From contig NZ_RYFF01000020.1 in NCBI RefSeq assembly GCF_004138165.1, forward strand, positions 33,982-93,567: a stretch of DNA of 59,586 bases, in the 5' to 3' direction. The first letter of the stretch is position 1, and the number at the start of each line of letters is the position of its first letter. The notes under the pieces are model-generated. The model saw only the letters and a list, made by a program, of their open reading frames with translations. It had not been told where the DNA came from and did no database searches. Of the stretch, positions 1 through 28,157 are shown piece by piece. Source of the stretch: Candidatus Chloroploca sp. Khr17. GTDB taxonomy: Bacteria > Chloroflexota > Chloroflexia > Chloroflexales > Chloroflexaceae. Made by a program: the position numbers and the translations under genes.

Positions 1-3000
1 CCGGCGGCGGGGAACTGGGTCTGGATTCGCTTCATGCCGGAGAGTGCGGGGAGTCATCTGCGGTATGTGCGGGTGAGTTATGGCGGGAATACCTACGGGC
101 GCAGTCTGGACGTGCAGACAAGCGCCCTGCTGGTCGAAGACAGTACGATTGTTCGGTCGAATGGTAGCGGTATCTATAACGAAGGCGGCACCGTCACGGT
201 GCGCAACAGCGCTCTGCTCGACAGCACCAGTGGGGCGCAGGTCAGCGGGGGCCAGTTGCTGATCGAAAATAGCTTGATCAGCGGCAACAGTGAGGGTGTT
301 GCGGTCAGTGGCTCGCCTGCGGTGACGATTACCAACAGTTCGCTGGCTGACAACAGCAGTTATGGAGTCAACAATAGCAGTACGACCGTGATGGTGCAGG
401 CGGGGAATAACTGGTGGGGCGCGGCTTCGGGGCCGTACCACCCTACGCTCAATGCCGCTGGTCAGGGCGCCCGCGTGAGTGACCGGGTTGTCTTTAGCCC
501 GTGGCTTGGCGCGCCGCCCGCAGGCGTCGAACGACGCTATACCGTTGGTGGGCGGGTGACTTTCGACGGAGTTGGGCTGGCGGGCGTAACCGTCTCGGAC
601 GGTACGCGCAGTGCGGCGACCGATGCGAGTGGAGTCTACCTGCTGAATGCGGTGCCGGTGGGCGACTATACCCTAACCCCGGCCCGCGCTGGCTACAGCT
701 TTACCCCGGCAACCCGGGCGATCAGTGTCACGAATGACCTGAGTGGTCAGGACTTCAGTGCGACGACGACGAGTGGGCCGTCGCCAACGCCGACCGCGAC
801 AGCAACGAGTGTGCCGCCAACGGCGACATCTACCTCTACGGCAACGAGTGTGCCGCCGACGGCAACATCTACCTCCACGGCAACGCCGACGACAACCAGT
901 GTGCCGCCAACCCCAACTGCGACGGCAACTGGTGGCCCGTCGGCGACGCCGACACCAACGATTGTCGCTGCGCCAATCTGTGGCGCAACGGTGCAGGAAG
1001 TCAACGGGACGATCAATGGAGTGGTCACCTGGACGGCGGGCACGGTCTATGTGCTCAACGATGTCTATGTCAACAGCACGGCCACGCTGATCATTCAGCC
1101 GGGTACCGTGATCAAGGGGCGGGCCAACTCGCGCCTGCGGGTTGATGGACGCCTGTTCGCCGATGGAACGGTTGCCAATCCGATCTATTTCACTTCGTAC
1201 TACGATGATAGCCTGTGTGGTGACACTGATGGCAATGGAGCTTTGCCTCCGCCGGCAGCGCAGGACTGGGGCTTCATCCAGTTCAACTCGATCAGCAACG
1301 ATACGAGCAGTTTGACGCGGGCGGTGTTGCGTTATGGTGGCAAGGGTCAGGACACGGCGGCAAGTGGCGTTGTTCGGCTGGTTGATGCCGGGCCGAACCT
1401 GGCGAATCTGAGTATGAGCCAGAACTATCGCAATGGGGCTGAGTTGGTTTATACCGGGTCGGGTTGGAATACCACCACGCTCAACAGTCCCAGTGTCGTC
1501 TACTGGCTGAGCAGTGCGCTGGTGGTGAATGCCAACCAGACCTTGACGCTTGGGCCGGGGGTGAAGGTCAAGGGGGCGGCTCTGTCACGCCTGATCGTGA
1601 ATGGCACGCTCACGGCTGATGGTACCGTGCAAGCACCGCTGGTCTTTAGCTCGGAGAAGGATGACACCGTCTGTGGCGTTGGCGCGTCCGATGAGCCGGT
1701 CTGCGACATGGACAATGCCGTAGCGACACCGACGGCCCAGAACTGGGGCTACATCCAGTTTGGCGCGGGCAGCAACGATATCAGCAGTCTGACGCGGGCG
1801 GTGCTGCGTTATGGCGGGCTGGGCCAAGACACGGCGGCAAGCGGGGTGGTGCGGCTGGTGGATGCCGGGCCGAACCTGGCGAATCTCAGCATGAGCCAGA
1901 ACTACCGCAACGGGGCCGAGTTGTCCTACACCGGGGCGGGCTGGAATACCGCCACGCTCAACAGCCCCAGTGTCGTCTACTGGTTGAGCAGTGCGCTGGT
2001 GGTGAATGCCAACCAGACCTTGACGCTCGGGCCGGGGGTGAAGGTCAAGGGGGCGGCCCTGTCACGCCTGATCGTGAATGGCACGCTCACGGCGGATGGC
2101 ACGGCCCAGGCACCGCTGGTCTTCACCTCTGAGAAGGACGATACCGTCTGCGGCGTTGGCGCGGCTGATGAGCCGGTCTGCGATATGGACAATGCCGTGG
2201 CGACCCCGGCAACCCAGGACTGGGGCTTCATCCAGTTTAGCGCGGGCAGCAACGATACGAGCAGCCTGACGCGGGCGGTGCTGCGTTATGGCGGCAAGGG
2301 TCAGGATACGGCAGTGGGTGGGGTCGTGCGGCTGCTTGATGCTGCCCCGACCTTGAGTTACAACCTGCTGCGCACAAACTATGGTGGCGTCGAGTTGCTC
2401 AACGGTGCGTTGCCAGCACTTACCTGCAACGACTTCGAGCAGAACCAGCAGTTTGGCATGCGGAACGCGCTGCCGGCCACGGCGGTGACCGCCGAGAACC
2501 AGTGGTGGGGCCGTGCGACCGGGCCTACCCACGCCGGCAATGCGGGCGGCAATGGCGATGTGGTGTCGGATGGTGTGGACTACAACCCGTGGCGGAGTAT
2601 GCCGTGTACCTATACCGGTGAGCCAACCCCGACGCCGACCGTGACCACGACGAGCCAGCCAACCGCGACGGCGACGGCAACGAGTGTGCCGCCAACCGCG
2701 ACAGCGACGGCGACGAGTGTACCGCCAACCGCTACCGCGACGAGCGTGCCACCGACGCCAACATCCACGGCAACCTCGACCACTGTGCCTCCGACGCCGA
2801 CGGGCACAGCGACCGCCACCGCGACGAGCGTGCCACCGACTGCGACGGCGACCGCTACCGCGACGAGCGTGCCGCCAACCCCGACAACAACACCGATGCC
2901 AACGGTCGAGCCGGGTACCTGGCAGGCAACGGGCAGCATGCAGACCGGACGGGCCTGGCATACGGCTACGCGCCTGGCCGATGGTCGCGTGCTCGTTGCT

Positions 3001-5646
3001 GGTGGAAGTGCCGGTGCGTGGGGCACAGGGCTGCAGAGCGCCGAGATCTATGATCCGGCCACAGGAACCTGGACGCCCACGGGCAATATGAGCCAGGCTC
3101 GTTTTGCCCATACAGCGAACCTGCTGCCCAATGGCAAAGTGCTGGTTGCTGGTGGTGAAGGTGCTGGTTGGCTTGCCAGCGCCGAGATCTATGATCCGGC
3201 GACGGGCACTTGGAGTAGAACCGGTAATTTGCAGCGTGGACGGTCAATGCATACGGCAACGCTGTTGCCCAATGGCAAGGTGCTGGTTGCTGGTGGGTAC
3301 GGCGGCGGCGATCTTGCTAGTGCCGAACTCTATGACCCGGTCACTGGTCAGTGGAGCACCACCGGGAGCATGAAGACGGCGCGGATGCGCTATCCGGCGG
3401 TGCTGTTGACGAACGGCAAGGTGCTGGTTGCTAGTGGCTCGCAGTTTGGCGGGGGCACCTATCCAACGACGACTGGCGCCGAGATCTATGATCCCGCAAC
3501 TGGTCAGTGGAGTGACACCGGCAGCCTGAATATCTCGCGCCACCATCATCAGGCAGTGGTGTTGCCCAATGGCAACGTGCTGGTCGCCGGCGGCCAGAAT
3601 CTTCCGAATGCGAATAACGTGTTGAGCGCCGAGTTGTATGATCTGGCGAGCGGTCAGTGGAGCATGACCGCCTCGATGCAAGAGCCTCATACCAATATTG
3701 GTCCGATGGCGGTGCTCTTGTCAAATGGTCAGGCGCTGATGAGTGGCGGTGGGGCTCAGGAGTTGGGCAACGCGATTGTGCTGAGTGAACTCTACAATGC
3801 GACGACAGGTACCTGGAGTCGTACTGGTGATCTGCGTGAGGGTCGAAGTTCGCATGCGGTGGTGGTGCTGAACAATGGCTTGGTACTTGCTTCTGGTGGC
3901 TTCACAACCTATGGCGTTGGCCTGGCTACGGCCGAACTCTATGCGGTTGCGCAGAACCCTGGGGCGATCACGGTTGATGCCATCACACCACGCGAAGGTT
4001 CCGCCGGTCAGACGATCCGCGTGACGGTGCAGGGCACTGGTTTTGCCACGACACCGCCACCGACGGCGCGGCTCGTTGGGGTGGCAGGCTCATTTGCGCT
4101 GACCGAGGTCACGGCGCAAGGTGCGACCAGTTTCGCGGCAACGGTGCCGGCGACGGTGCCGCCTGGTGCATATGATCTGGTGGTGGACACAAATGGGCAG
4201 ACCGCGACCTTGCCCAACGCCTTCACGGTGCTGGCCGCCGCCCCGGCGGTGACCAGTGTCTTGCCACCGTCGGCGCTGAATGATGTTGAGACCGAGATGC
4301 TGGTGCAGGGGCGCAACTTTGCGGCAGGCGTTGGCGTGCGCCTCGGCACGACCAATCTTGAGACGACGCGCATTGATGGTGCAACGCTGCTCGCGGTGGT
4401 ACCGGCGGGTCTTGCGCCGGCAATCTACGACGTGGTCGTGACGAATCTCGGTGGTGGCGAGGCGCAACTTGCGCAAGCCTTCACCGTGGTTGATGCGACT
4501 GATGCAACCTTCGATGACCTCTTTAGCAGCAGCGATCAGCTTTGGATCAACCCGGTCTTGCCACGGGCGAATGAGCCTTTTGAGGTGGGTCTGGTGGTGC
4601 AACGCAGTGGGGGCAAGACGACCCTCACTGATATACCGGTCACCTTCCGCCGTGACTCGGTGACTGGCCCAGTCTTGGGCACGGCGACGGTGCCGTTCCT
4701 CGATCCACCGGCGAGCAGCGAGAGTACCACGCCGCTGAGCATCACGCTGCCAAACGCTGGGATCGTGACGCTCTATGCGATCATTGATCCCGAGGGCACG
4801 CTCACCGAAAGCACGACGACCAACAATGTGATCAGCCGGACGATGCTGGTGGCGGTGGCCGCCCGTGACCAGACGCCACCAGTCGTCACTGGCATTGGCA
4901 TCAATGGGGGTGCCGCGACGACCGTCGTGACCCGCGGCATAACGATCAATATCAGCGCTCTTGACCCATCGCCAAATGCCAGCGGGGTGCGGTCAGTCCA
5001 TGTGATCGAGTATGTCTACAACGAAGGCGCGCAGCGCTGGGTGCCGATGGCGAGTTCGGGCTGGTTGCCCTACAACCAGACGCCCGAAAGCTACCGCTGG
5101 ACCCTGGCACCGTTGCCAGGCATGCACTACCTGCAGGTACGGGCGCGAGACATGGCGAACAACATCTCGATCGGCCAGGCGCGTCGCTTGATCACCTACG
5201 AACCAGCAACTGACCGGATCAGGCGACGCCAGACGCGCATCTACCGCTATGAGGTCGGGGCGGGCCAGGAATTCCGGGTCAACCTGGATGTACTCTCGGG
5301 CGATGCGGATCTCTATGTCTGGTCATCTGATCCGCAGCAATCGGCCTGGGTGAGCAACCTGCCAGGCAGCGCCGACGAGCAGGTGAGCATCCCGGCTAGC
5401 CAGGTGGTACCGGGAGTGTACCAGGTCGAGGTCTACGGCTACACGGCGGCAGAATACCTGCTGACCACCTCGCTTGGCGGTACTCCGGCGTCGGCGCAGA
5501 TGTTGGGTGGTGGACTGGCCCAAGCGAAAGATTTGCCTGTAGCACCGTTGTTGCCAGTGAATGCGCAGCCGGATGCGCTGGTAGGCGATGTACCGCCAAT
5601 CGAAGCCGAGGTCTATCGGGTGTACTTGCCGTTGAGCTTGCGGTAA
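1..5646 (+). CDS. Giant secreted multidomain protein. The 5' end is truncated by the window edge, since the frame is open from nt 1. It contains parallel beta-helix repeats, a carboxypeptidase-regulatory-like fold, Thr/Pro linkers, a ~160-aa module duplicated 2.3x, a six-blade Kelch-like propeller, IPT/TIG-like Ig domains and a pre-peptidase C-terminal (PPC) domain. Its C-terminus is ...VYLPLSLR.
   Basis: Single 5.6-kb ORF with strong high-GC codon bias. Beta-helix repeat motifs of the NSxLxDxxSGAQVSGG type; Kelch-like blades (GRAWHTATRLADGRVLVAGG...) repeated about 6x; (TSVPPTAT)n linkers; a PPC-like block YRYEVGAGQEFRVNLDVLSGDADLYVWSSD. Confidence 0.8.
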   Translation, partial: PAAGNWVWIRFMPESAGSHLRYVRVSYGGNTYGRSLDVQTSALLVEDSTIVRSNGSGIYNEGGTVTVRNSALLDSTSGAQVSGGQLLIENSLISGNSEGVAVSGSPAVTITNSSLADNSSYGVNNSSTTVMVQAGNNWWGAASGPYHPTLNAAGQGARVSDRVVFSPWLGAPPAGVERRYTVGGRVTFDGVGLAGVTVSDGTRSAATDASGVYLLNAVPVGDYTLTPARAGYSFTPATRAISVTNDLSGQDFSATTTSGPSPTPTATATSVPPTATSTSTATSVPPTATSTSTATPTTTSVPPTPTATATGGPSATPTPTIVAAPICGATVQEVNGTINGVVTWTAGTVYVLNDVYVNSTATLIIQPGTVIKGRANSRLRVDGRLFADGTVANPIYFTSYYDDSLCGDTDGNGALPPPAAQDWGFIQFNSISNDTSSLTRAVLRYGGKGQDTAASGVVRLVDAGPNLANLSMSQNYRNGAELVYTGSGWNTTTLNSPSVVYWLSSALVVNANQTLTLGPGVKVKGAALSRLIVNGTLTADGTVQAPLVFSSEKDDTVCGVGASDEPVCDMDNAVATPTAQNWGYIQFGAGSNDISSLTRAVLRYGGLGQDTAASGVVRLVDAGPNLANLSMSQNYRNGAELSYTGAGWNTATLNSPSVVYWLSSALVVNANQTLTLGPGVKVKGAALSRLIVNGTLTADGTAQAPLVFTSEKDDTVCGVGAADEPVCDMDNAVATPATQDWGFIQFSAGSNDTSSLTRAVLRYGGKGQDTAVGGVVRLLDAAPTLSYNLLRTNYGGVELLNGALPALTCNDFEQNQQFGMRNALPATAVTAENQWWGRATGPTHAGNAGGNGDVVSDGVDYNPWRSMPCTYTGEPTPTPTVTTTSQPTATATATSVPPTATATATSVPPTATATSVPPTPTSTATSTTVPPTPTGTATATATSVPPTATATATATSVPPTPTTTPMPTVEPGTWQATGSMQTGRAWHTATRLADGRVLVAGGSAGAWGTGLQSAEIYDPATGTWTPTGNMSQARFAHTANLLPNGKVLVAGGEGAGWLASAEIYDPATGTWSRTGNLQRGRSMHTATLLPNGKVLVAGGYGGGDLASAELYDPVTGQWSTTGSMKTARMRYPAVLLTNGKVLVASGSQFGGGTYPTTTGAEIYDPATGQWSDTGSLNISRHHHQAVVLPNGNVLVAGGQNLPNANNVLSAELYDLASGQWSMTASMQEPHTNIGPMAVLLSNGQALMSGGGAQELGNAIVLSELYNATTGTWSRTGDLREGRSSHAVVVLNNGLVLASGGFTTYGVGLATAELYAVAQNPGAITVDAITPREGSAGQTIRVTVQGTGFATTPPPTARLVGVAGSFALTEVTAQGATSFAATVPATVPPGAYDLVVDTNGQTATLPNAFTVLAAAPAVTSVLPPSALNDVETEMLVQGRNFAAGVGVRLGTTNLETTRIDGATLLAVVPAGLAPAIYDVVVTNLGGGEAQLAQAFTVVDATDATFDDLFSSSDQLWINPVLPRANEPFEVGLVVQRSGGKTTLTDIPVTFRRDSVTGPVLGTATVPFLDPPASSESTTPLSITLPNAGIVTLYAIIDPEGTLTESTTTNNVISRTMLVAVAARDQTPPVVTGIGINGGAATTVVTRGITINISALDPSPNASGVRSVHVIEYVYNEGAQRWVPMASSGWLPYNQTPESYRWTLAPLPGMHYLQVRARDMANNISIGQARRLITYEPATDRIRRRQTRIYRYEVGAGQEFRVNLDVLSGDADLYVWSSDPQQSAWVSNLPGSADEQVSIPASQVVPGVYQVEVYGYTAAEYLLTTSLGGTPASAQMLGGGLAQAKDLPVAPLLPVNAQPDALVGDVPPIEAEVYRVYLPLSLR
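1261..2340 (+). repeat. Intragenic tandem duplication of about 477 bp per unit, 2.3 copies, with units starting at about 1261, 1738 and 2215. Nucleotide identity is above 90%.
   Basis: Near-identical DNA blocks, for example 1383-1670 against 1863-2150. They encode the repeated protein module QDWGFIQF...VCDMDNAVATPTA. Confidence 0.85.
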
Positions 5647-5675
5647 GAGTGCGTTTGGATGCCGTGCGTACGGAG

Positions 5676-5703
5676 GCCAGGGTAACTGGCCTCCGTACGT
5701 ACG
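5676..5703 (+). terminator. Perfect GC-rich hairpin 30 nt after the stop of the first giant gene: cgtacggaggccag-ggtaa-ctggcctccgtacg. There is no clear U-tract.
   Basis: 14-bp perfect stem with a 5-nt loop, read directly from the sequence. Confidence 0.5.
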
Positions 5704-5828
5704 AGGGCAACGGCATTATACGAAACCGGATACAACGGGGCACCCGCAAGGGGTACCCGTACCGGGGTGGGGCACCCGCCAGGGGTGCCCCTACAGGGCC
5801 GGGGGGCGGGCCCGGTGTAGGGGCACCC

Positions 5829-5958
5829 CTGGCGGGTGCCCTGGCGGGTGCCTTGGCGGGTGCCTTGGCGGGTGCCTTGGCGGGTGCCCTGGCGGGTGCC
5901 TTGGCGGGGTGCCCTGGCGGGTGCCCTGGCGGGTGCCCTGGCGGGTGCCCTGGCGGGG
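5829..5958. repeat. Tandem array of about 11 copies of the 12-nt unit CTGGCGGGTGCC(Y), with two 13-nt variants. An inverted copy of the same motif lies immediately upstream (5767-5830), forming a long hairpin or cruciform.
   Basis: Direct read of ctggcgggtgccctggcgggtgccttggcgggtgcc... The same 12-mer in reverse complement sits at 5772-5790. Confidence 0.8.
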
Positions 5959-6184
5959 TGCATACACGGAAGATGCAATCGCCCTGCGTACGATGTGAGC
6001 TATCATTGACACGAGAACTATAATAAAGATATGATGGCTCATCAGGTGATGAAAGGAGACACAACGCACTCAAATCCAGTTGGTTGTAACACACTCACAT
6101 GCATTTATATATCTTTCTCGCTGATGTGAGGTCAGTGATACCTGTTTCTGGGCAGATACCACGGCCACAAACAAGGTGAATATC

Positions 6185-9100
6185 ATGCAAGCCTCGTCGC
6201 GCCCTTCTCTTTCACCACGTTCATTGATCTTTTTGGGTCTGCTTGTTGTTGGTCTTGTGCTTGTTGGCTTTGCGCCCTTTGCCAGAGCCGCGCCGGGCTT
6301 CCCTACGGCCCCCGAGACGTTTGATGGTACCAGTCTTCCTTCTGGCTGGACTGTCGTCAATGTCCGCACTGATGCCCCCTATCCGATTGATGACCCCTAT
6401 CCCTTGCCCAATGATAGCCATGGATGGCGCTTTGATAACCCCGGAGCACGCCGGAATGTGACTGGTGGCACGGGTAATTTTGCCATTGCTGATAGCGACC
6501 ATGCTGGTCGTGGCAAAACGATGGATACGCAGTTACGCACGCCAACGTTCAGCCTCGAGGGCGTTGCTGCGGCCCGTCTCCAGTTCAATACCACCTTTCG
6601 TGCCTATGATCAGTCGACCGGCGATGTCGATCTGAGCATTGATGGTGGGCAAACCTGGACGACGATCTGGCGTACGACGAGGACGGTGCATGGGCAAGTC
6701 AAGGTCACCCTGCCCGCCAGTGCGCTCAATCAAACCAAGGTCAAGGTACGCTTCCGCTACTATAATGCCACCTGGGACTGGTACTGGGCCATTGATAATG
6801 TTGCCATTGTTATGGTTAATCTCCCCAATCCACCCGATGGCTTGCAGGCGACGCTCAAGGGTAGCGAGATTCAGTTGAACTGGAATGCCGCGCCCAATGT
6901 AAGCCGCTATGTCATCGAGCGTTCGCCTGATGGCACGAACTGGGCGACGATCGCTGAGGTTTTTGGTTCCCAGACACGGTTCACCGATACGCAGGGCTTG
7001 GTCTGTGGCCTCCCTTATCGCTATCGCCTGCTGGCGCGCAATGTGGCCGGCCTGTCACAGCCAAGCGCACCCGTAACCGCGACGACCGCCTCGTGTGATC
7101 GCCCGACGACGCTCAATGAGACTTTTACGGCCACCACGCTGCCTAATGGCTGGACAGTCGCGCCATCCTCGGGGGCGACCTGGTCGTTCAATAATCCGGG
7201 TGGACGCTTGAATTGGACCGGGGGGACAGGCAATTTTGCGGGTGTCGATAGCAACCGCGCTGGTGGTGCGTCGGTGGATGCCTCACTTGTCTCGCCTTCC
7301 CTCAACCTGAGCGATCAACCCAGTGTTGTCTTGCAATTCAAGACTTTTTTCTGGGCTTATCGACGGGCGACCGCTGGGGTTGATGTCAGTACCGATGGCG
7401 GAGAAACCTGGGTCAATGTCTGGCGACGAACCGGGTTGTTTTGGGGTCCCGTCACGCTCGATCTCTCTTCACGGCTGGCCGGCAAGAGCGTAGCGATGGT
7501 GCGCTTCAGCTACTCCACTCATGCGTACAATAATTCGTACTGGCAGGTTGACGATGTGCAGTTGCTGGCGATGAGCCCACCTGTCGCGCCGACCAATTTG
7601 CGTGGTTCCCTCCTGACTTCAGGTGACATAAGTCTCACCTGGGATGGCCGTGGGAGCCAGACCTTTGAACTGGAACGGGCGCTCGGCAGCAGTGGCAGTT
7701 TCCAGAAGATTGCCGAACTTGATCACGGCGTCACGAGCTTTATTGATACGACGGTTGCCTCGGAAACGCTCTATCGCTACCGTGTTCGTTCACGCAACGC
7801 GGTCGGCGTCTCGGCTTATAGCAATCTTGTTTCGCTCACCAGTGGCAATCGCAATGTACGAATGATTGACATAACAATTTCGTATTACGCGAATAGTGCG
7901 ACGGCACAGGCTCGCCGCCAGGCGATCGAAGCGAACGTGCGCTACTTTGCCGATAGCATCTACGAGATGTCCAACGGGGCGAATAAACTTCGTCGGGTGA
8001 CGATCTATACGGGTGGTGCCTTTGCCAATCAGGCGGATATTGTCTGGGTCGCGAATTGCTGGCCCAACGCCCATCTTTCAGGCTATGGCACGCCAGGGTT
8101 GCGCATTCAGCACTGTGATACGTTCCATGCGGCCAATTTCATGAACAGTGAGGTTGGCTATCGTCAAGGTGGCTATGTCCTTGGTCATGAAATGGGCCAC
8201 TACTTCTACTCGGTCTACGATGAATATCGGGGCAGCAGCCCGTCGACAGCCTGGATTGGTTTTCCGCGCTTGACTGATACCCCGGTGAATAACTCAGTAA
8301 TGAATAGTCAGTGGTATGCTGTGGACGGCAATCTCAACTGGCTCAACTTCTCGACTCTACGCAACAATACCGGCAATACGGCGCAGCACCGGGTCTATGC
8401 TGCCAGTGCCTGGCAAACCCTTGCCCGCCCCTTGTACCAGGATCCACGCAATGGTACACGGATGACGGCACCGGTGCGCCTCTTCCATCCTGAACTGGCG
8501 GCGGTTGCGCCGGCATTAGGGCAGGCGCCACGGATCGATCTGACCAGTCCCACTGCCCAGGCCAATGCACGCAACGCATTGAATTTCGTCTGGGTTGGCC
8601 AGTCAGGGAGCCCGCGCCTGCAGCAAGCCAATGCTGAAATGGCACTGCAGTTTGTGGTGGACACCTCGACGCAGATGAGCGAGGCGCAACTGGCTTCGAT
8701 CAAGGCGAATCTGAAGAATCTGGTTGACCAGGCGGCTGACACGACGATGATCGGCCTGCTGACCTATGCCGATACGGTGACGGTTGTGCAGCAGCCGGTG
8801 CTGCTCGACAGCGAGGCGAGCCGTACCGCGCTCAAGGCAACGCTTGATGGTCTGATGCTGAGCAATAGCGCTGCCGTGTTGACCGGCGAAGCGTTGGAAG
8901 CCGCGCTGGGGGTTGAGGGTGCTGCCGGTATTCCCGACAACGCGGTGCGTGCGGTCTATCTCTTTAGCGCCGGGATGTATACGGGCGCAAGCCATCCTTT
9001 TGCGCAGGTTGGCGCGTATCAAGATGCCGCCGTTACGCTAGAGACCTTTGATCTGGGACGCGATCCGCAACTTGCGGCAGAACTCTTCCAGATCGCGACG

Positions 9101-10432: not shown

Positions 10433-10455
10433 AAGATGGGCGCTGCGTTAGATCC

Positions 10456-10510
10456 ATAATGAATGGGTGGAGACGAGGGGCGTAGCTCCTCGTCTCCACC
10501 CATTCATTAT
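10456..10510 (+). terminator. Long hairpin with a 23-bp stem, 24 nt after the metalloprotease stop.
   Basis: ataatgaatgggtggagacgagg-ggcgtagc-tcctcgtctccacccattcattat. Confidence 0.6.
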
Positions 10511-10637
10511 AGGCTCATGGTACAATACGAGCCAGCAAGAATTGTGCAAGAAAGATCCACCGAAACGCGCCAATGATCAGCATACGGGCCGGCCAGATGA
10601 GCGGAACAGCGGTGGAACGTGAGAAACAGAGAAGCGT

Positions 10638-13433: not shown

Positions 13434-13480
13434 GCCGTCTCCAAGCTAAACTACTCACCGGTGTGGACAGTTTAGCCCCC

Positions 13481-14928: not shown

Positions 14929-14934
14929 TCCGTT

Positions 14935-14982
14935 TGTGCGTCGTGCGCGGTGCCAGCAAGCTGGCACCGCGCACGACGCACA
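14935..14982 (+). terminator. Perfect 22-23-bp stem hairpin between sucB and lysA.
   Basis: tgtgcgtcgtgcgcggtgccagc-aag-ctggcaccgcgcacgacgcaca. Confidence 0.6.
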
Positions 14983-15021
14983 GGGTAGTCGAAGCGATCG
15001 GCCTATTGAGGAGCAACACTG

Positions 15022-16323: not shown

Positions 16324-16334
16324 CGGGGTAGGTG

Positions 16335-17681: not shown

Positions 17682-17950
17682 TCCGCCAAACTTCCCTGTT
17701 TGCTCCCTCCACAAACTGAGCGGCGATGGGCTATCATAGACTCAATCCCAGCAAAACATTGCTTCCAGATCGCTCCTTGTTCGTGTTTTGGACACTCTTA
17801 TGCTCAGCGAGCCTCCCTGGTTGAGGTGCAACTGCCGCGCCTTCTGCCACTCCCCCTCCGTTGCCCAGGTGCCCCCTTGACAGGGCTTGCAGTTGCCCCA
17901 AACGCCAGCAGCAAGGCCCTGATGAGTACAGCGCAAAGGAATGGGTCAGC

Positions 17951-20134: not shown

Positions 20135-20165
20135 GACAAGGGGGCCATAGGCCCCCTTGTCTCAC
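20133..20165 (+). terminator. Hairpin immediately at the stop of the preceding gene. A second hairpin follows at 20188-20208 (gtgggggcc-tac-ggcccccac).
   Basis: gagacaagggggcc-atag-gcccccttgtctc. Confidence 0.55.
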
Positions 20166-20240
20166 GTTCAGCCTTCGGCTAGGGAGGTGGGGGCCTACGG
20201 CCCCCACGCCCTGCTGGGATAGCGCAGGAGAAGCAGCATC

Positions 20241-23200
20241 ATGACACGGATGACCTCGTATGCGCTTGGGATCACGATGGTGGGCTTGATCGGCCTGCTG
20301 GTAAGCCTGGGAACCGCACTTGGGGCGGCATCGAGTCGTAGCGGGACTCAAGCCTTTGCGCTAGCCTCAGGTATACGAGCGCCCCTCTCTCCTGCCCCTA
20401 TCGGGACGCCCATCGCTGTATCGCACGGTGTGGCGGATACGACGTTGCCGGATCTGGTGATTACGGCGCTTAATCTGACGCCATCCGACCCTGGCGAGGG
20501 AGGTACTGCCGATATTGAGGTGGTGGTCAAAAATCAGGGCACCGCCGCAACGTCGGGCCGCTTCACTATCTATCTCTATGTTGAACCGACCGATGAACCG
20601 CCAACTGAGCAGACTGAGTATACGACCTTTGCTGGCTATGCGCTGACGTTGCCCCCCGGGGGGACGTTTAGCTTTACCCGGTTTGACCAGCAATTTACGC
20701 GCACACCGCCGACGGTCTATGCCTGGGTTGATCCGCCATGGGAAAATTTCATTACCGAGTTAAATGAAGCAAATAATCTCTTTCCACAGGTTGCTACTGG
20801 GGTTGATACCTTTGAAGATGATGATACGTGTGTTCAGGCGAAACCCATTCTAACCGATGGGACGCCACAGAGTCGCAATTTCTTTCCGAATTCGGGGCGT
20901 GAACGTGATGTTGATTGGGTGACGTTCAATGCGGTCGGTGGTGTCACCTATGCGGTCGAAGCGAGTCCGACCGGCGTTGATGCTGATCCAATTATTGAAC
21001 TCTACAGTACCTGTACAGGGGCACCGAGTTTTAGCAATAAAGTCATTACCGAATTCACTGCCCCTGCCGATGGCCCGATCTTTTTGCGGGTTCTTAATAA
21101 CAAGACCGACGCTGGGCCTGATCATCCTTACACGCTTCAGGTAACGAACGATAGCGCCTGCCCGAATTATTTCGAGCCAAATAATAGTGCCGCTACCGCT
21201 GGCGATTTGCCGCTTGCGACCGTGCAAACTCACAGCTTTTGCAAGCCTGCCGATCACGACTGGGTACGCCTGGCGGTTGAGGCGGGGGCCAGTTATCGTG
21301 TGGTTGCGACGAACGTCGGGCCACGAGCGAACGCGATCCTTGAACTCTATCGTACGCTTGAGGCGGCAACGAGTGCGGCAAGCGGGGCTACCATCGAGTT
21401 TATTGCGGCAGAAACCGGCCATGTCTATCTCAAAGCGGCCCAGGTTGAGCCTGAGGTTGCTGGTAGTGGCACTGAATATACCCTGCGCGCCGAGCGTCTG
21501 AGTGCCTCGGGGTGTACGCCGGATAGCTTTGAAGATGACGATACGCTTGAACAGGCCGGTTCAATTGCGGCTGATGGAACCACCCAGACGCGCAATGTCT
21601 GCCCTGAAGGCGATCTGGATTGGATCAGTTTTACGGCCAATGCGGGAACGACCTATACCATCGAGACGCTGAATCTGGGTGAAGCGGCTGATACCGTGAT
21701 GTGTCTGCATACCAGCACTGGTGAACAGATCGCGTGTGATGATGATGGCGGCACCGGCAAAGCCTCGCGCCTGAGCTTTGAACCGCCCGTGAATGGCAGC
21801 TATCTGTTGCAGATCAAGGATTTCTCGCCAACTGTTGCGGGTGATCTGACCAACTACGATCTCAAGGTGACACAACGCATTTGTCAGCCCGATGTCTTTG
21901 AGGATGATAATAGCCGTGATAGTGCGCGGGTCGTTGTTGTTGGAAGCGCAGCAACCAACCGCAACTTCTGCCCGGCAGGTGATGAAGACTGGATCGCCTT
22001 TGTCGCTGACGAAGGCAAAAATTATCTGGTCGATGCGATTGCGCTCGGTGCCGAAGCCGATACGCTCGTTGAGTTGTACGACGCCAACCAGGTCTTGCTC
22101 GCGCTCAATGACGATTTTACCCCCGGTACCAGTTCGCAGGTGAGTCTGGCCGAGGCTCGTGCAGGCAACTATTTTGTCCGGGTACGCCAGTATAATCCGA
22201 GCTACCAGGGCATCGGCACCGAATATTCGTTGCGTGTCCGCGAAGGTACTGCGGTACCTCCGCCGACGCCTTCCCCTGGCCCAACCCAGGGACCCTCGCA
22301 ACCCCCAGGGGAGACCGACGTGCGGACGTTGATCCTCTTCAACGAGACGCGTTTTGGGCAGATCCATAGTGTCGTCGAGGCCACTGAAGTTTTGACGCGC
22401 CTTCAGGCTTTAGCGCAACATCCGCAGGTGAGCGGCGAGCTTGTTTTGCTTGACGATAATGCCCAGGTTCAGGCTGCTTATGCCGCCTGGACGGCCGATC
22501 TTGGCAATGTCGAAAAAGCGAATCAGGTGACGGCCGCCATTCGTGCGGTTGTTCTGACCTATCAGCAACAGCGGAGTGGCCTCGCATATCTGGTGCTGGT
22601 TGGCGATGATCGGGCGCTTCCGATGCGGCGCATCTTCGATACCACCCCACGCTCATCAGAACGAACCTATCCGCATGTCAGTACGAACAATCCCGCCGGA
22701 GTGGCCCTCAAGGAGAACCACTATCTCACCGACGACTACTTTTCAGATCGCGAGCCAGCCGAGGTTAACGGGCGCGAGCTCTTCATCCCTGATCTCGCCA
22801 CCGGACGCCTAGTTGAAACGCCTGCCGAGATCATCGCTCAGCTCGACGCCTTTCTCGCACGCCAGCGCACCACAGTGACCAATACCTTGATCACTGGTTA
22901 CGATTTTGTGCAGGATCTTGCCGCGGCCGATTGCGACGACTGGCGAGCCGATCTGGGCATTCCCCGCATTGATTGCACGCTGATCGGCGATACCTGGACG
23001 GGCGATCAACTGCGTGCGTTGCAACCACGCACAACGTCGCCGTTTAATATTCAAATCTTCAATGGTCACGGAACCCACTATGCCCACGGGGTACCGGTGG
23101 GCAATGCGTTGCGCGCCAACGAGGTTGCCGAGGGCACCGCCGATCTACGTGGTGGCCTGATCTATTCGCCCGCCTGTCATGCTGGACTCAATTTGCCCCC

Positions 23201-24395
23201 GGCCAATGAAACGAACCCGCTTGATCTGCCGCAGGCCTTTGCCGGTCGCGGGGCCAGTTATATTGGCAATACCGGCTATGGCTGGGGTATGCGCAGTGCC
23301 GTCGGTCTCTCGGAACGCATGATCCGGCTCTATACGCAAGAACTGCTCAAAGGCACGCGGGCGAGCATGGGCCAGGCGCTGGCGACAGCAAAAAGCCTCT
23401 ATTTTCAGCAGGGCCAGTCTTTTTCCAGTTATGACGAAAAGGTGATGCAGCAACTGGTCTTTTATGGCTTGCCGATGTATGAAATCGAGACCGGGGCGGT
23501 GCTCTCGGGCCCGGGCAATGAATTCCCCGGGGTCGGGTTCACCCCGATCCTGCCGGGTGGCGGCGCCGCACTGATGAGCAATGGCTCAGTCTTGACCGGC
23601 TCGGTGGCGATTGACTTTCGCAACGCCGAGAATCTTGCGCTGTCAGAGACCGACGATGGCGGCTATTATGCGTTGAATGGTTCGGTGCAGACGGTACCGG
23701 GCTTGCCAGTGCAGCCGTTGCACTTTGGCAACGTGACGGCCCCCAACCTGGAGGCTCGCGGAGTCTTGTTGCTCGAGGCGACCTATCAGGAAGCCGAGCC
23801 GTTCGATCCGCTCATTGCGGCCCCCTTCAACGAATATCAACCCGATAATGAGCCTGGCGAGCTGGCCCAGGCCCGTGGGCTCTTCCCGCTTGTCCCAGTC
23901 TCGATCCAGCGCCATAACCAAACGTCGAGCCTGGTAACGCAACTTGGCCAGTATGATGCGGATCTGGGATCTTTGCGCCTGCTGAACGACGTCAATGCCG
24001 AAATCTACTACAGCCTCTCAGAGGAGCAGTTTTCACGCGAAACGACCGTCATTGACGGCATTACCCGTGTTGGCACTCCTCAGGTCGAAATTAAAGTTGG
24101 TACTGTTGAAGTTGCCGGGATCGAACGAGTTGTCTTGTCGTATATTCAAGACATCAACCAGGCCGCCCGCCAACTGCAATCAATGGATCTCACCTACGAT
24201 CCACGCTCACAAAAATGGGTTGGCTCGTTCCAGGGTGACACCAACTCGCGCTATCTCGTTCAGATCGTTGACAAGGCGGGCAAGATCACCGTTGCCGCCA
24301 ACAAAGGCCAGTATTACACTCCGGGCCTCGTGACTGCCGCACCGGATACGTCGTGTACCGGCCGTTGTGTGTTCCTCCCGCTGGTGAGTCGTTGA
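20241..24395 (+). CDS. Giant secreted protein. It has a signal peptide, a CARDB-like domain, five tandem PPC-like beta-sandwich domains, and a C-terminal clan CD (caspase/gingipain/CHAT-like) cysteine peptidase domain. Its C-terminus is ...CVFLPLVSR.
   Basis: AGGAGA Shine-Dalgarno sequence then ATG. The His-Gly ... Ala-Cys dyad is present (FNGHGTHYAHG ... GGLIYSPACHAG). The repeated PPC blocks each begin with FEDDDT/FEPNNS/FEDDNS. Confidence 0.8.
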   Translation: MTRMTSYALGITMVGLIGLLVSLGTALGAASSRSGTQAFALASGIRAPLSPAPIGTPIAVSHGVADTTLPDLVITALNLTPSDPGEGGTADIEVVVKNQGTAATSGRFTIYLYVEPTDEPPTEQTEYTTFAGYALTLPPGGTFSFTRFDQQFTRTPPTVYAWVDPPWENFITELNEANNLFPQVATGVDTFEDDDTCVQAKPILTDGTPQSRNFFPNSGRERDVDWVTFNAVGGVTYAVEASPTGVDADPIIELYSTCTGAPSFSNKVITEFTAPADGPIFLRVLNNKTDAGPDHPYTLQVTNDSACPNYFEPNNSAATAGDLPLATVQTHSFCKPADHDWVRLAVEAGASYRVVATNVGPRANAILELYRTLEAATSAASGATIEFIAAETGHVYLKAAQVEPEVAGSGTEYTLRAERLSASGCTPDSFEDDDTLEQAGSIAADGTTQTRNVCPEGDLDWISFTANAGTTYTIETLNLGEAADTVMCLHTSTGEQIACDDDGGTGKASRLSFEPPVNGSYLLQIKDFSPTVAGDLTNYDLKVTQRICQPDVFEDDNSRDSARVVVVGSAATNRNFCPAGDEDWIAFVADEGKNYLVDAIALGAEADTLVELYDANQVLLALNDDFTPGTSSQVSLAEARAGNYFVRVRQYNPSYQGIGTEYSLRVREGTAVPPPTPSPGPTQGPSQPPGETDVRTLILFNETRFGQIHSVVEATEVLTRLQALAQHPQVSGELVLLDDNAQVQAAYAAWTADLGNVEKANQVTAAIRAVVLTYQQQRSGLAYLVLVGDDRALPMRRIFDTTPRSSERTYPHVSTNNPAGVALKENHYLTDDYFSDREPAEVNGRELFIPDLATGRLVETPAEIIAQLDAFLARQRTTVTNTLITGYDFVQDLAAADCDDWRADLGIPRIDCTLIGDTWTGDQLRALQPRTTSPFNIQIFNGHGTHYAHGVPVGNALRANEVAEGTADLRGGLIYSPACHAGLNLPPANETNPLDLPQAFAGRGASYIGNTGYGWGMRSAVGLSERMIRLYTQELLKGTRASMGQALATAKSLYFQQGQSFSSYDEKVMQQLVFYGLPMYEIETGAVLSGPGNEFPGVGFTPILPGGGAALMSNGSVLTGSVAIDFRNAENLALSETDDGGYYALNGSVQTVPGLPVQPLHFGNVTAPNLEARGVLLLEATYQEAEPFDPLIAAPFNEYQPDNEPGELAQARGLFPLVPVSIQRHNQTSSLVTQLGQYDADLGSLRLLNDVNAEIYYSLSEEQFSRETTVIDGITRVGTPQVEIKVGTVEVAGIERVVLSYIQDINQAARQLQSMDLTYDPRSQKWVGSFQGDTNSRYLVQIVDKAGKITVAANKGQYYTPGLVTAAPDTSCTGRCVFLPLVSR

Positions 24396-24424
24396 CCTAA
24401 GCTTTGTGACAAAGGGTGACTGTT

Positions 24425-25918
24425 ATGCGTATGTTATTCACGGCCGTGCTGGTCTTTGCCGTCGTTGTGCTCGTTGCGACGACGCGCTATCCAGCCGAAG
24501 CTCAGGGAACCTTGAGCGCCAGTACCAGTTTCAACTACCAGGGTGTGCTGACGACTGATGGAGCACCAGCCAGTGGAAGCTTCGATCTGCGCTTCATTCT
24601 CTACACTGCTGCCACCGGCGGCTCGCAAGTTGGTGCGAGTCTTTTGCGCGAGGATGTCACGGTCAACCGTGGGCTCTTTGTGGTAGCGCTTGATTTTGGA
24701 GATGTCTTTGATGGCGACCCGCGTTTTCTCGAAATTGCGGTGCGCCAGGGTGGTTCCACGGGTGAGTTTACGATCCTTTCGCCCCGCCAGGAACTGACCA
24801 GCGTGCCGATGGCGATCTTTAGCCAGAATAGCGTCAACAGCCAGAATAGCGTCAACAGCCAGAATAGTGTCACGAGCGAAAGCACCAATGCTTTGCGTGA
24901 GCAACCCATCGCCGAGACTGCGCCAACCAGCGGCCAGGTCTTGAAGTGGAACGGGACAGCCTGGTCACCGGCGGCTGACAATAATACAACCTACAGCGCT
25001 AGTACCGGGTTATCGCTTGCAGGCACCACCTTTAGTGTCAACTTTGGTGGCAATGGCAGCTCGAGCCTCATAGCCCGGGCGGATCACACCCATCTTGGCT
25101 CATTGTGGCGCGGTGATGTTGGGTTCACCGCGCTGTGGGTCGAAAACCAGTCGACGGTGAGTGGCGCTTCGGGGGTGGTCGGCATCAGTGTCGCGGCGAA
25201 CGGCTTGAGTGGGCGGAGCACGTCGGGCAACGGCGTGAATGCGGTCAGCACGTCGGGGAATGGGGTGAATGCCAGCAGTTCCACAGGTACCGGTGTGCGT
25301 GGCGTCAGTTCGGCTGACAATAGCGTCGGGGTCTGGGGTCGCAATAGTTCCGGGGGATGGGGTGGCTATTTCGAGGGTCGTGTCACCGTGGTGGGCACCT
25401 TGAGCAAGTCGGGCGGCTCGTTCTTGATTGATCATCCGCTCGATCCGGCCAATCGCTATTTGAGTCACTCGTTTGTCGAGTCGCCCGATATGATGAATGT
25501 CTACAATGGCAATGTCGTGCTTGATGCCAACGGACGCGCCGAGGTCACGTTGCCCGACTATTTCGAGGCGCTCAATATCGAGTACCGCTATCAGTTGACG
25601 CCGATTGGCGGCGCGGCCCCCAATCTGCATATTGCCGAAGAGATCGTTGACAACCACTTTGTGATTGCCGGGGGTTCAGCGGGGCTCAAGGTCTCGTGGC
25701 AGGTGACGGGCATTCGCAATGACCCGTGGGCACGCGACAACCGGATCATTGTTGAGCAGGAAAAGATCCCGGCCGAACAGGGCACCTTCCTCTATCCAGG
25801 GGCGAATCCTGACGTGACAGTACAGCCGCAAACAACGCCTGGCGAGCCAGGGCCAATGGTCCCGGCTTCATCTGGTACGACGGTAGATGTCCCTGCGCCT
25901 GCTGATGTGTCCCGCTAG
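24425..25918 (+). CDS. Secreted hypothetical protein with short peptide repeats (SQNSVN x3; SGNGVNA x2) and a conserved-looking C-terminal domain of unknown function.
   Basis: N-terminal signal MRMLFTAVLVFAVVVLVATTRYPAEA. An 18-bp DNA tandem repeat lies at 24826-24879. No recognisable catalytic motifs. Confidence 0.6.
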   Translation: MRMLFTAVLVFAVVVLVATTRYPAEAQGTLSASTSFNYQGVLTTDGAPASGSFDLRFILYTAATGGSQVGASLLREDVTVNRGLFVVALDFGDVFDGDPRFLEIAVRQGGSTGEFTILSPRQELTSVPMAIFSQNSVNSQNSVNSQNSVTSESTNALREQPIAETAPTSGQVLKWNGTAWSPAADNNTTYSASTGLSLAGTTFSVNFGGNGSSSLIARADHTHLGSLWRGDVGFTALWVENQSTVSGASGVVGISVAANGLSGRSTSGNGVNAVSTSGNGVNASSSTGTGVRGVSSADNSVGVWGRNSSGGWGGYFEGRVTVVGTLSKSGGSFLIDHPLDPANRYLSHSFVESPDMMNVYNGNVVLDANGRAEVTLPDYFEALNIEYRYQLTPIGGAAPNLHIAEEIVDNHFVIAGGSAGLKVSWQVTGIRNDPWARDNRIIVEQEKIPAEQGTFLYPGANPDVTVQPQTTPGEPGPMVPASSGTTVDVPAPADVSR

Positions 25919-25937
25919 CGATGGAAAGGCAAGCCTC

Positions 25938-28157
25938 ATGCAACGCACATCGCTTTTCGGGGTGATTATTGGTGGCTTGTTGCTCGTGCTGACGATCACG
26001 ATGGTGGCGGCCCAGGCCGGTTTTGGCTTGCCGTGGGTAGCGGTCAGTGGTGGCGGCGGCACGAGTAGCAGCGGCTCGTTTGCGGTTCAAGGTTCGGTTG
26101 CATATGACAGTAGCCCACCCCTGAGCAGTGGCGTCTACACGCTGACCGGCGGTTTCTGGCCCGGCCTCAATGACGAGGCCCCGATGTTGAGTGCCGTCGA
26201 GCCCACGGCAGCGCGCAGTGTGGTGCCAGTTGCGTTGGCGCTGACGGGCAACTATTTTCAAGTTGGGGCGACCGTGACGCTCGGCACGACGGCGCTGGAA
26301 AATGTGACGACGATCAGCGCCTCGCGCATCGAAGCGGTGATCCCCGCCGGGGTAGCTGCCGGGGTCTACGCGCTTGAGGTGCGCAACCCCGACGGGCAGA
26401 GTGTCACGCTTGATGATGCCTTTACCGTCGAATTGCCCAACCTGCGCATTTTGCAAGTCCAACCTGATCAGGGTGCCAATCAGCAACCCGTCGAGATTGT
26501 CATTGCCGGCGAGGATTTCTCGCCAGCGGCTGAGGTTCGGCTTGGTGAAACGCCGCTGACCGTCATCCACGATAGCACGACCCGCATGCGCGCAACGGTG
26601 CCGGCTGGACTTGACCCGCAGGCCTATCCATTGACCGTGATCACGCCCGGGGTCGCTCAGGCAACGCTTGAGAATGCCTATACCGTCGTGGTACAGGCTT
26701 CAGCGGGGGCCGACAATTTTGAGCCAGACAATACCTGTGCGACCGCAAAAACGATTAGCATTGACGGCGTCGCCCAGGCGCGCACGTTTCATCGTACCGA
26801 AGATGTTGACTGGGTCGCCTTCAGCGCCGAAGCAGGACGGCGCTATCTACTGGTAGCTCGCCCACCCGCAGGTTCCCCCGCCAGTCTTGCGGTCGAACTG
26901 TATGATCGGTGCGAGAGCGACCCAACAGGTGGGCAGAATAACACCTTTAGCAACGGCGTCAGCATCTCGTTTGATGCTGCAATCACAGGCACGATCTACC
27001 TCAAGGTGATCAACCGCGATCCAAGCATCTTCGGATCAGAGGTCGCGTACGACCTCTCGGTGCGCGATCTCACGACGATCACCACCGCTGAGGCGCGAGG
27101 TGCAGTGATCATTGTTGCTGGCAAGTTGCGCGACAATGATGATGTGCAACAGCAGATCCACGGGGTCGCACGCAATGCCTATCAACTCTTCCGCGCCAGC
27201 GGGTATGACGACGATCATATTCAGGTACTGGCGACTGATCCAACGCTGGATGGGTACGATGCCCCGGCCACGCTCACGAACCTGCGCAACGCGATCACCA
27301 GCTGGGCGCGTGAACGGGTCGTCTCGAGTAGCCCCCTGACCATCTACATGGTTGGCCATGGTGACGAAAATCGTTTCTATGTTGATGAGACTGCGGGGCA
27401 GCAGCGTCTCGAACCCGAGCAACTCAACGAGTGGCTGAATCAACTCGAAACAGCCCGCCCCGGACTCAAGGTCAATCTGATCATCGAAGCCTGTTTCGCC
27501 GGCAGCTTCATTCTCGACCCGGGCAGCCTCAGCAAAGTCGGGCGGGTGGTCATCGCCTCATCGCCTGCCGACAACGTGGCCTATGCCTCGCCCGAGGGGG
27601 CCTATTTCTCGGATACCTTCCTTGCGTCACTCGCCTCATACAGTCTCTACGAGAGCTTTCTTGACGGCAAAGCGATTGCCCGTGCGACCTATCCCGACCA
27701 GATCGCCTGGCTGGACGATAACGGGAATCGGGTGCCGAACGAAGCCGCCGACGGGCAAGAAGCGCAGCAGCGGAGTTTTGCGCTTGCAACCCTGAGTGAC
27801 GATCTCAACTTCCGCCCGCTCATTGTCGAAGCGACCTTTGTGCGCACCGAGGGCAGCAATGGTACCATCAGTGCGGTGGTACGCGACGATCATGGCGTCG
27901 AAGAGGTCTTTGCCCAGATCTTCCCACCCTCATACCAACCACCCGATCCACAGTCAGGGCTGGTCACGGTAGCCGTACCCTTTGTCACCCTGACCCCGCT
28001 GGGCAATGATCGGTACAGCGTAAGCTACGACGGCTTCACCGAAGAAGGTGACTATCGCCTTGTCATCCAGGCCCGCGACAATGACGGATCCAATGCCTTG
28101 CCCGCTATTGCCACCACGGGCGGGCAGCGGGTCTATTTGCCATTGACGATCAGGTAG
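25938..28157 (+). CDS. Secreted legumain-like (family C13, clan CD) cysteine peptidase. It has a signal peptide, two IPT/TIG-like domains, a PPC domain, and a C-terminal Ig-like region. Its C-terminus is ...VYLPLTIR.
   Basis: Legumain signature blocks IYMVGHGDENRFYVDE (His) and NLIIEACFAGSF (Cys; compare legumain EACESGS). PPC block NFEPDNTCATAKTI...DVDWVAFSAEAGRRYLL. Confidence 0.75.
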   Translation: MQRTSLFGVIIGGLLLVLTITMVAAQAGFGLPWVAVSGGGGTSSSGSFAVQGSVAYDSSPPLSSGVYTLTGGFWPGLNDEAPMLSAVEPTAARSVVPVALALTGNYFQVGATVTLGTTALENVTTISASRIEAVIPAGVAAGVYALEVRNPDGQSVTLDDAFTVELPNLRILQVQPDQGANQQPVEIVIAGEDFSPAAEVRLGETPLTVIHDSTTRMRATVPAGLDPQAYPLTVITPGVAQATLENAYTVVVQASAGADNFEPDNTCATAKTISIDGVAQARTFHRTEDVDWVAFSAEAGRRYLLVARPPAGSPASLAVELYDRCESDPTGGQNNTFSNGVSISFDAAITGTIYLKVINRDPSIFGSEVAYDLSVRDLTTITTAEARGAVIIVAGKLRDNDDVQQQIHGVARNAYQLFRASGYDDDHIQVLATDPTLDGYDAPATLTNLRNAITSWARERVVSSSPLTIYMVGHGDENRFYVDETAGQQRLEPEQLNEWLNQLETARPGLKVNLIIEACFAGSFILDPGSLSKVGRVVIASSPADNVAYASPEGAYFSDTFLASLASYSLYESFLDGKAIARATYPDQIAWLDDNGNRVPNEAADGQEAQQRSFALATLSDDLNFRPLIVEATFVRTEGSNGTISAVVRDDHGVEEVFAQIFPPSYQPPDPQSGLVTVAVPFVTLTPLGNDRYSVSYDGFTEEGDYRLVIQARDNDGSNALPAIATTGGQRVYLPLTIR

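Follow-up and report, generated by a model that had tools for sequence, protein, structure and literature searches.

Gene cluster and C-terminal tails

We analyzed a 59,586-nucleotide stretch of the genome of Candidatus Chloroploca sp. Khr17 (contig NZ_RYFF01000020.1, positions 33,982 to 93,567), referred to here as the window, in which large secreted proteins end in almost the same eight residues. The genomes nearest to the window are those of Candidatus Chloroploca asiatica and Ca. C. mongolica (93–94% protein identity), along with an Oscillochloridaceae metagenome-assembled genome (MAG). These organisms are filamentous anoxygenic phototrophs of the phylum Chloroflexota, whose filaments are bounded by a single membrane and have a shared outer layer as well as a surface-layer (S-layer)-like lattice. 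Four open reading frames (ORFs) on the forward strand terminate in VYLPLSLR, VYLPLTLR, VFLPLVSR, and VYLPLTIR, each followed directly by a stop codon, exactly as claimed in a first-pass annotation of the window. We use the name YLP box for this octapeptide, after the curated models described below, and number its carriers in the window cargo 1 to 4 (Table 1).

Table 1 Coordinates of the YLP boxes, their carriers, and adjacent features in the window
Feature	Position (nt)	Strand	Description
Cargo 1	1–5646	+	Giant protein, partial at the 5′ window edge; beta-helix, Kelch propeller, TIG, CARDB, PPC
YLP box 1	5620–5643	+	VYLPLSLR, then TAA; end of ORF 1–5646
Cargo 2	6176–10432	+	Signal peptide, HEMGH metalloprotease, choice-of-anchor J, fn3, VWA, choice-of-anchor X (NCBIfam, Pfam)
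YLP box 2a	10346–10369	+	AIFLPMLR, degenerate upstream copy, ORF 6176–10432
YLP box 2b	10406–10429	+	VYLPLTLR, then TGA; end of ORF 6176–10432
STAND-type NTPase fused to OmpR-type winged-helix domain	16332–17681		Just upstream of the cargo cluster
Secreted pro-peptidase	17951–20134 (ORF 17861–20134; start 17951 probable)	+	Just upstream of cargo 3
Junction YLP box	19388–19411	+	VYLPVVTQ, then GGAGT; 243 residues before the stop
Streptopain-like cysteine peptidase domain (C10 fold, clan CA)	19478–20131	+	
Cargo 3	20241–24395	+	Secreted, 1384 residues, signal peptide; CARDB and four PPC-type repeats
YLP box 3	24369–24392	+	VFLPLVSR, then TGA; end of ORF 20241–24395
Cargo 4	25938–28157 (ORF 25887–28157)	+	Signal peptide, Peptidase_C13 (legumain-like), TIG/choice-of-anchor Z repeats
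YLP box 4	28131–28154	+	VYLPLTIR, then TAG; end of ORF 25887–28157
12-transmembrane (TM) membrane protein (Pfam ABC_tran_2/12TM_1)	28246–30030		89 nt downstream of the last cargo gene; without an adjacent ATPase gene

The carriers have different catalytic scaffolds. An HEMGH motif at residue 671 of ORF 6176–10432 agrees with its annotation as a metalloprotease, and the legumain-like label of ORF 25887–28157 is supported by a Pfam match to Peptidase_C13 (30.6 bits; cutoff, 22.8). The label of clan CD peptidase given to ORF 20241–24395 was not supported by Pfam, NCBIfam, or a comparison with the C13 protein. Its residues 1–680 comprise only CARDB and four PPC-type repeats, which are common to the C13 protein, and residues 681–1384 have no Pfam match at E ≤ 1. 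Signal-peptide-like N-termini were found by a heuristic, not by SignalP, in all three carriers that could be assessed; the N-terminus of ORF 1–5646 lies outside the window. In the latter protein, a Pro-rich linker stands ahead of the box, which has Ser at a position usually occupied by Val or Ile. The annotated second, degenerate copy in the metalloprotease is indeed present (AIFLPMLRV, 10346–10372), but it begins 20 residues before the terminal box and not 25.

A six-frame scan of the window for [FY]LP[LM] gave seven matches in total. Four of these are located exactly three residues ahead of the stop codon of a long ORF, and a fifth is AIFLPMLRV. The likeness of four tails in one window is all that would favor chance, a recent duplication of the tail, or a repeated DNA element supplying the ends of the ORFs, and we consider such an origin vanishingly improbable. 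The codons of the box differ synonymously from gene to gene, TAA, TGA, and TAG all serve as stop codons, and the stretches of DNA that follow are not related to one another. The likeness therefore exists at the peptide level, and a DNA repeat or terminator as its source is ruled out. Given the amino-acid composition of the window proteins, approximately 1.8e-6 such C-termini would be expected by chance, against four observed; an expectation of the order of 2e-6 leaves little to coincidence. Moreover, the box is kept in orthologs at 35–94% identity and on unrelated scaffolds of other lineages. The YLP box is under peptide-level selection.

Curated models of the motif

The first-pass annotation regarded the motif as undescribed. 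However, a scan of 44-residue tails against NCBIfam gave matches to two curated models for exactly this element, NF050076 (sort_motif_YLP) and NF053834 (ultrashort_CTERM), both of which are named "YLP-box putative sorting motif-containing protein". The models have 10 and 11 positions and align end-to-end with 20-residue tails, with the last position on the terminal Arg or Lys. With the curated cutoffs of 10 bits (NF053834) and 15 bits (NF050076), the tail of ORF 6176–10432, which includes both copies, passes for both models (18.1 and 16.9 bits, respectively); its best stretch for NF053834 is the upstream copy AIFLPMLR. The tail of ORF 20241–24395 passes for NF053834 (13.1 bits). That of ORF 25887–28157 scores 14.2 bits with NF050076, 0.8 below the cutoff, and that of ORF 1–5646 was missed by the filters of HMMER and hence not reported for either model. 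The extreme shortness of the models explains why two of the four tails do not reach the curated scores. Among the collected tails of relatives, NF050076 matches 26 of 48 and NF053834 matches 25 of 48, and no other family recurs.

The window tails are thus the Chloroflexota YLP box, which NCBI has curated as a putative sorting tag. Our literature search found no publication on the bacterial YLP box, its mechanism, or its partner. The finding holds and carries biological meaning, but the signal it concerns is already known as a database annotation, though uncharacterized; to this class the window adds four members and the junction copy described below.

Distribution, consensus, and position of the YLP box

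The counts in this section cover homologs collected by search (P numbers) and fetched loci (L numbers). The consensus of the box is [VLI]-[YF]-L-P-[L/I/T]-[V/I]-x-[R/K], often with a Tyr two residues upstream; in more general form it reads hydrophobic-[YF]-L-P-hydrophobic-[VI]-x-[RK] with 0–4 residues after it. In the 140-protein set, nothing follows the box in 23 cases and one to three residues follow it in 16, so that it ends within three residues of the C-terminus in 39 of 140 homologs, compared with 0.04 expected. Under a stricter pattern, 36 boxes were terminal and 6 were internal; chance alone would give 6.1 over all positions. Trailing residues numbering 0, 1, 2, 3, and 4 were all seen, and once there were 21 (L007). 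The description of the motif as strictly C-terminal therefore does not hold for the relatives, which have one to four, once 21, residues after the box and include one family with an internal box.

The box is found on VWA/HExxH, S8, M28, M14, C13, Kelch, and RCC1-type scaffolds. Orthologs of the C13 protein end in VYLPLTRR, VYLPLTLR, or VYLPLLAR and vary only at the x positions; more distant homologs end in LYMPLVAKP or have two copies of the box. The search with the metalloprotease gave 120 homologs, in which a terminal box is present on almost every ortholog (35–87% identity). It is also present on S8, M28, and M14 proteins that have only accessory domains in common with the metalloprotease query. 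Homologs of the metalloprotease from Streptomyces and Micromonospora are without the box. Named carrier lineages are Chloroploca, Viridilinea, Chloroflexales, Oscillochloridaceae, Thermoflexales, and Caldilineaceae, and further carriers are in unnamed MAGs. The tails are therefore not confined to paralogs in one genome, since unrelated scaffolds in other lineages bear them. The view that the box is a selected peptide signal on multidomain exoproteins with signal peptides and different catalytic scaffolds was borne out across loci and lineages.

On contigs of other lineages, tandem clusters of secreted peptidases have the box on nearly every gene. There are three box-bearing genes in L005, L013, and L007 (one of the latter being the gene with 21 trailing residues), two in L008 (Caldilineaceae), four in L011, and five in L006, including those whose proteins end in IFLPLVMRNFGP and LFLPCVLAFRNFAGR; in L010, 5 of the 6 genes checked have the box. 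Of the 15 strict-pattern carriers in the loci on which this count was made, 14 have a signal-peptide-like N-terminus, and the sole carrier without one is probably the 3′ part of a split gene. In L005 (3292–6679), a tail-less M14 peptidase of 780 residues is followed by a 330-residue ORF without a signal peptide but with a YLP tail. In L009 (5268–11188), a VWA protein has a C-terminus like the pro-region of the C10-like family described below, and the box and peptidase domain follow 62 nt on. These apparent split genes may be frameshifts, assembly errors, or real fissions.

In the Chloroploca lineage, the box is duplicated in the tail of the metalloprotease, where AIFLPMLRV is followed by 11 residues and the terminal VYLPLTLR. 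Orthologs have one terminal box, and its counterpart in the alignment is the first copy (2a). P0003 (L010) has two copies of independent origin (LYMPTVLNGG and, at the end, VFLPTLLR).

Structural context of the tail

An AlphaFold2 model was built for the last 269 residues of ORF 6176–10432 with 15 orthologs. Beta domains were predicted with confidence up to approximately residue 234, and the last 35 residues, including both boxes, had a predicted local distance difference test (pLDDT) score of approximately 30. The linkers that precede the box vary in sequence and length or are rich in Pro and Thr. Because of this low pLDDT and the variable linkers, we regard the box as a linear motif on a flexible tether, as judged from the model. 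The alternative that the tail forms the last strand of a folded domain was ruled out by the same pLDDT.

Two negative statements of the first-pass annotation were correct. The box has neither a TM helix nor a basic tail, as only two or three hydrophobic residues and one basic residue follow the Leu-Pro before the stop codon. It is also not the C-terminal domain (CTD) of the type IX secretion system (T9SS): no NCBIfam T9SS model matches the window proteins, and the last 35 residues are predicted to be disordered.

The window proteins contain three choice-of-anchor domains (J, X, and Z), and homologs in other phyla have known sorting signals in the position of the box. P0044 and P0054 bear T9SS type A sorting domains there (38.5 and 37.8 bits; cutoff, 23). 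In P0020 from Myxococcota, a signal of the MYXO-CTERM class directly follows a choice-of-anchor Z repeat; P0008 is a marginal case. Some Chloroflexota homologs (P0074) end in SLH domains. Since the homologs of other phyla have recognized sorting signals at this site, the YLP box would be an address and not a structural accident. On the sequence comparison, this positional equivalence is the strongest comparative argument that supports such a role.

A junction box in a streptopain-like peptidase family

A fifth box, absent from the first-pass annotation, is located inside the secreted protein encoded just upstream of cargo 3. ORF 17861–20134 has no terminal box. Read from the probable start at 17951, the protein opens with a signal or anchor sequence; its N-terminal region closes with a beta-sandwich, and a disordered linker with the junction box leads on to a C10-like domain. 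The VYLPVVTQ copy is conserved in three related genomes (L001–L003). In the structural model, the junction box lies in a segment (68–94) with pLDDT < 50; the model did not predict the box docked in the active site of the C10-like domain, but with the linker disordered this outcome is uninformative and does not count as a negative.

The domain at 19478–20131 has a streptopain-like clan CA fold with the conserved Cys and His, and its peptidase activity is predicted. The candidate catalytic residues are Gln556 (nt 19526), Cys566 (nt 19556), His702 (nt 19964), and Asn733 (nt 20057). Pfam PF01640 (Peptidase_C10) aligned with this region over profile positions 19–193 of 194 at 12.9 bits (cutoff, 26; E = 0.13), and sequence searches of the PDB with this peptidase gave no match. 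A homolog search with the domain collected 75 relatives without Pfam annotation. In an alignment of 46 members, of which PF01640 matches 7 at E < 1, the Gln, Cys, and His residues are invariant and the Asn residue is nearly so. An exhaustive profile search gave 636 cluster representatives at E ≤ 0.001. The domain thus defines a sizeable family without a Pfam or NCBIfam model.

Among the best 150 of these sequences, 46 of the 126 long forms have a YLP-like box, and in 42 of those 46 it is the sole box. It typically precedes the catalytic Cys motif by 55–75 residues. Of 53 boxes, 44 lie inside a junction window that accounts for 5.7% of the sequence. At the junction, the box can do without its basic residue. 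In other phyla, e.g., in Hyalangium, long forms have the same two-part architecture without the box. Stand-alone members of approximately 217 residues, of which there are many, consist of the bare domain without a signal peptide and start with MSWTYYWA...GC.VGCG.VAW. Sources of the family include a Thermoplasmata archaeon MAG and an unclassified bacterium, and the members seen in Planctomycetota and Myxococcota are longer forms.

In Chloroploca (the window and L004), the peptidase gene has YLP-tailed cargo around it. A Caldilineaceae MAG has two C10-like paralogs beside a C13 protein ending in QLFLPLVTR, a 1443-residue protein ending in AYLPMVNR, and a CARDB/PPC giant. In L009, the C10-like gene comes directly after the VWA protein.

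The conserved internal copy, together with the 0–4 (once 21) residues that trail the box elsewhere, excludes recognition that depends on the terminal carboxylate (PDZ-type or peroxisomal targeting signal 1-type). The junction copy also bears on the idea that the box is an export or quality-control element and not an address: a miniature stop-transfer or pause sequence at SecYEG, or a degron, which would time the release or turnover of very large exoproteins. The box does resemble a miniature tripartite signal, with a signature, two or three hydrophobic residues, and Arg/Lys or Arg-Arg, and its carriers are mostly very large. Small carriers (283 and approximately 330 residues) are known as well, however, and an internal copy with 243 residues still to follow cannot act when translocation finishes. 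The dispensable basic residue at the junction, as well as the replacement of the box by true sorting signals in homologs, which indicates the function of an address, make this explanation highly improbable.

Proposed role of the YLP box

We propose, with moderate confidence, that the YLP box is a sorting or processing signal. Displayed on the disordered C-terminal tail of Sec-exported, mostly hydrolytic, multidomain proteins, it would be read after export, and a lineage-specific factor would sort, process, or retain the carriers at the filament surface. The likeliest mechanism would be proteolysis at the box, possibly coupled to attachment by transpeptidation of the sortase or legumain type. 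We infer the cleavage, the anchoring after cleavage, and the identity of the enzyme from the position and company of the box. On cargo, it almost always ends no more than four residues from the C-terminus, and the sole family with an internal box has it in the linker of a pro-peptidase, which suggests a site of proteolytic processing used by a system specific to Chloroflexota. The junction copy is evidence for processing because it is in the linker where activation cleavage is expected. For the cargo proteins, a cut only a few residues from the C-terminus would make most sense if coupled to transfer onto an acceptor.

Several observations weigh against a sorting or processing role. No experimentally shown function of this kind was found for the YLP box in the literature. 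No protease, sortase, or membrane-enzyme family recurs in the cargo loci L005–L007 and L010–L014. Unlike all established signals of the sortase and exosortase types, the box has no TM segment and the protein has no obvious hold on the membrane until processing, and the two tandem copies in ORF 6176–10432 and P0003 would be superfluous for a single cleavage. Furthermore, some secreted proteins of the window are without the box. One is the 497-residue product of 24425–25918, encoded between two box-bearing genes, and another is the GHL10 glycoside-hydrolase-like protein with a signal peptide encoded on the reverse strand (30325–31812). The latter protein is exported and box-free, so the YLP tag is not universal among the exported proteins of this organism.

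The main rival is non-covalent docking or retention, in which the uncleaved box would bind a receptor, an S-layer protein, a cell-wall polymer, or the shared outer layer of the filament, e.g., by beta-strand addition. The box has the properties of such a peptide: it is a 7-mer that is hydrophobic and resembles a strand, it includes both an aromatic and a basic residue, and its tether is flexible. Tandem boxes would increase avidity, and a docking peptide would tolerate both internal placement and 0–21 trailing residues. In some Chloroflexota homologs, the same position is taken by SLH, a domain that binds the wall non-covalently, and an outer layer and an S-layer-like lattice have been described for Chloroflexota filaments (preprint 10.1101/2025.08.19.671072). 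However, docking leaves unexplained why cargo boxes are nearly always within four residues of the end, with internal boxes at chance level, and why the sole internal site is the junction of a zymogen. No candidate receptor was identified in this analysis, and we consider docking rather unlikely.

If the box is a processing signal, a candidate for the enzyme is the C10-like peptidase of the ORF 17951–20134 family, which would free itself by cutting the YLP box in the linker between its own pro-domain and catalytic domain. The freed peptidase would then cleave the near-terminal boxes of the co-encoded exoproteins or transpeptidate them onto an envelope acceptor. In favor of this assignment are the position-specific junction box, the conserved catalytic residues, and the location of the gene among cargo in Chloroploca, Caldilineaceae, and a third lineage. 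On the other hand, the family occurs without the box in other phyla, and the gene is absent from eight other cargo-centered loci. The C10-like peptidase could simply be one more substrate. On balance, we think it unlikely, though worth naming, that this family is the cognate YLP-box enzyme of Chloroflexota. The specificity of clan CA peptidases is dominated by a hydrophobic S2 pocket. By analogy, it may be speculated that this preference suits a cut one or two residues after the conserved Leu–Val/Ile pair.

Other genes in the window

The 497-residue protein of 24425–25918 contains NSVNSQ tandem repeats and Gly/Ser-rich repeats and has no domain match. A 500-residue protein in L011, also without domain matches, does bear a YLP box. 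A Trans_reg_C regulator is located upstream of the cargo clusters in L007 and L008, as is the winged-helix fusion protein in the window (Table 1); the proximity may reflect regulatory linkage or coincidence. The 12-TM protein was considered as a partner of the box and rejected, as it accompanies the cluster only in L004, where the genes are identical, and is absent from the other cargo loci.

A low-GC island on the reverse strand (35601–52735; 0.48–0.54, compared with approximately 0.58–0.64 across most of the forward-strand half) encodes a HerA-like ATPase (padloc mad8/HerA), an SPFH/Band7 protein, TPR proteins, and several ORFs without matches. It also encodes an E1–E2 protein of the type found in the cyclic-oligonucleotide-based antiphage signaling system (CBASS; Cap2-like, E = 5.6e-41) and two JAB (Cap3-like) proteins, one of 903 residues. 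The island was probably acquired horizontally and would serve in anti-phage defense. Further along the window are an extracytoplasmic function-type sigma factor (54153–54956), an unannotated 267-residue ORF (55281–56084), and, on the reverse strand, a radical SAM/SPASM enzyme (57170–58513), which together may form a peptide-maturation locus.

Comparison with known sorting signals

A large part of the hydrolases that Chloroflexota secrete, whole gene clusters among them, appears to bear the YLP box as a tag. The motif of NF050076 and NF053834 is the same as that of the window tails, with no difference in kind, and the database entry says only "putative". To this entry we add the anatomy of the box, i.e., its near-terminal position on a tail predicted to be disordered and its interchangeability with T9SS and MYXO-CTERM signals, and its recurrence at the junction where activation is expected in a streptopain-like peptidase family that had lacked annotation. 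With these two additions, an annotation label becomes a testable cleavage-site hypothesis with a named candidate enzyme.

Among cysteine peptidases of family C10, the zymogens of streptopain (SpeB) and interpain A are the nearest precedent for the junction protein, but sequence similarity to the window domain is below the Pfam threshold. The pro-region of the window family is far longer than those of streptopain and interpain A, and in Chloroflexota the junction carries a YLP box.

It is also known that a few C-terminal residues can suffice for a cysteine peptidase to cut and ligate a protein, as for C13 asparaginyl ligases (butelase, Asn-His-Val) and the omega site of glycosylphosphatidylinositol (GPI) transamidase. 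C13 and C10-like cysteine peptidases are both encoded in the window cluster. In contrast to legumain-type sites, however, the YLP box has no conserved Asn or Asp, which makes a legumain-type enzyme an unlikely reader. Clan CD and C13 peptidases were rejected as readers for this reason; moreover, these proteins are themselves carriers of the box.

The T9SS CTD resembles the YLP box in being a C-terminal address on secreted hydrolases, and it occupies the same position in homologs. It is cleaved by PorU, a clan CD cysteine peptidase that acts as a sortase. The CTD is a folded beta-sandwich of approximately 70–100 residues and needs an outer membrane, whereas the YLP tail has 8 residues in a disordered segment.

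The LPXTG signal of sortase and the PEP-CTERM, PGF-CTERM, GlyGly-CTERM, and MYXO-CTERM signals of exosortase, archaeosortase, rhombosortase, and myxosortase, respectively, are likewise C-terminal addresses on Sec-exported surface proteins. They are found with the same choice-of-anchor families as the YLP box and have the same order of signature, hydrophobic, and basic parts. In contrast to these tripartite signals, the YLP box has no TM helix and comprises 8 residues instead of approximately 25–35, and without the helix the membrane-retention step of the tripartite systems cannot operate. Of the candidate sorting signals considered in this comparison, the YLP box is the shortest, and it is without a membrane anchor; to learn how it is read would thus bring a new principle into the field of bacterial protein sorting. 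If the C10-like family is the cognate enzyme, Chloroflexota would have a sortase-like system composed of a clan CA protease and an 8-residue signal without a membrane-spanning segment.

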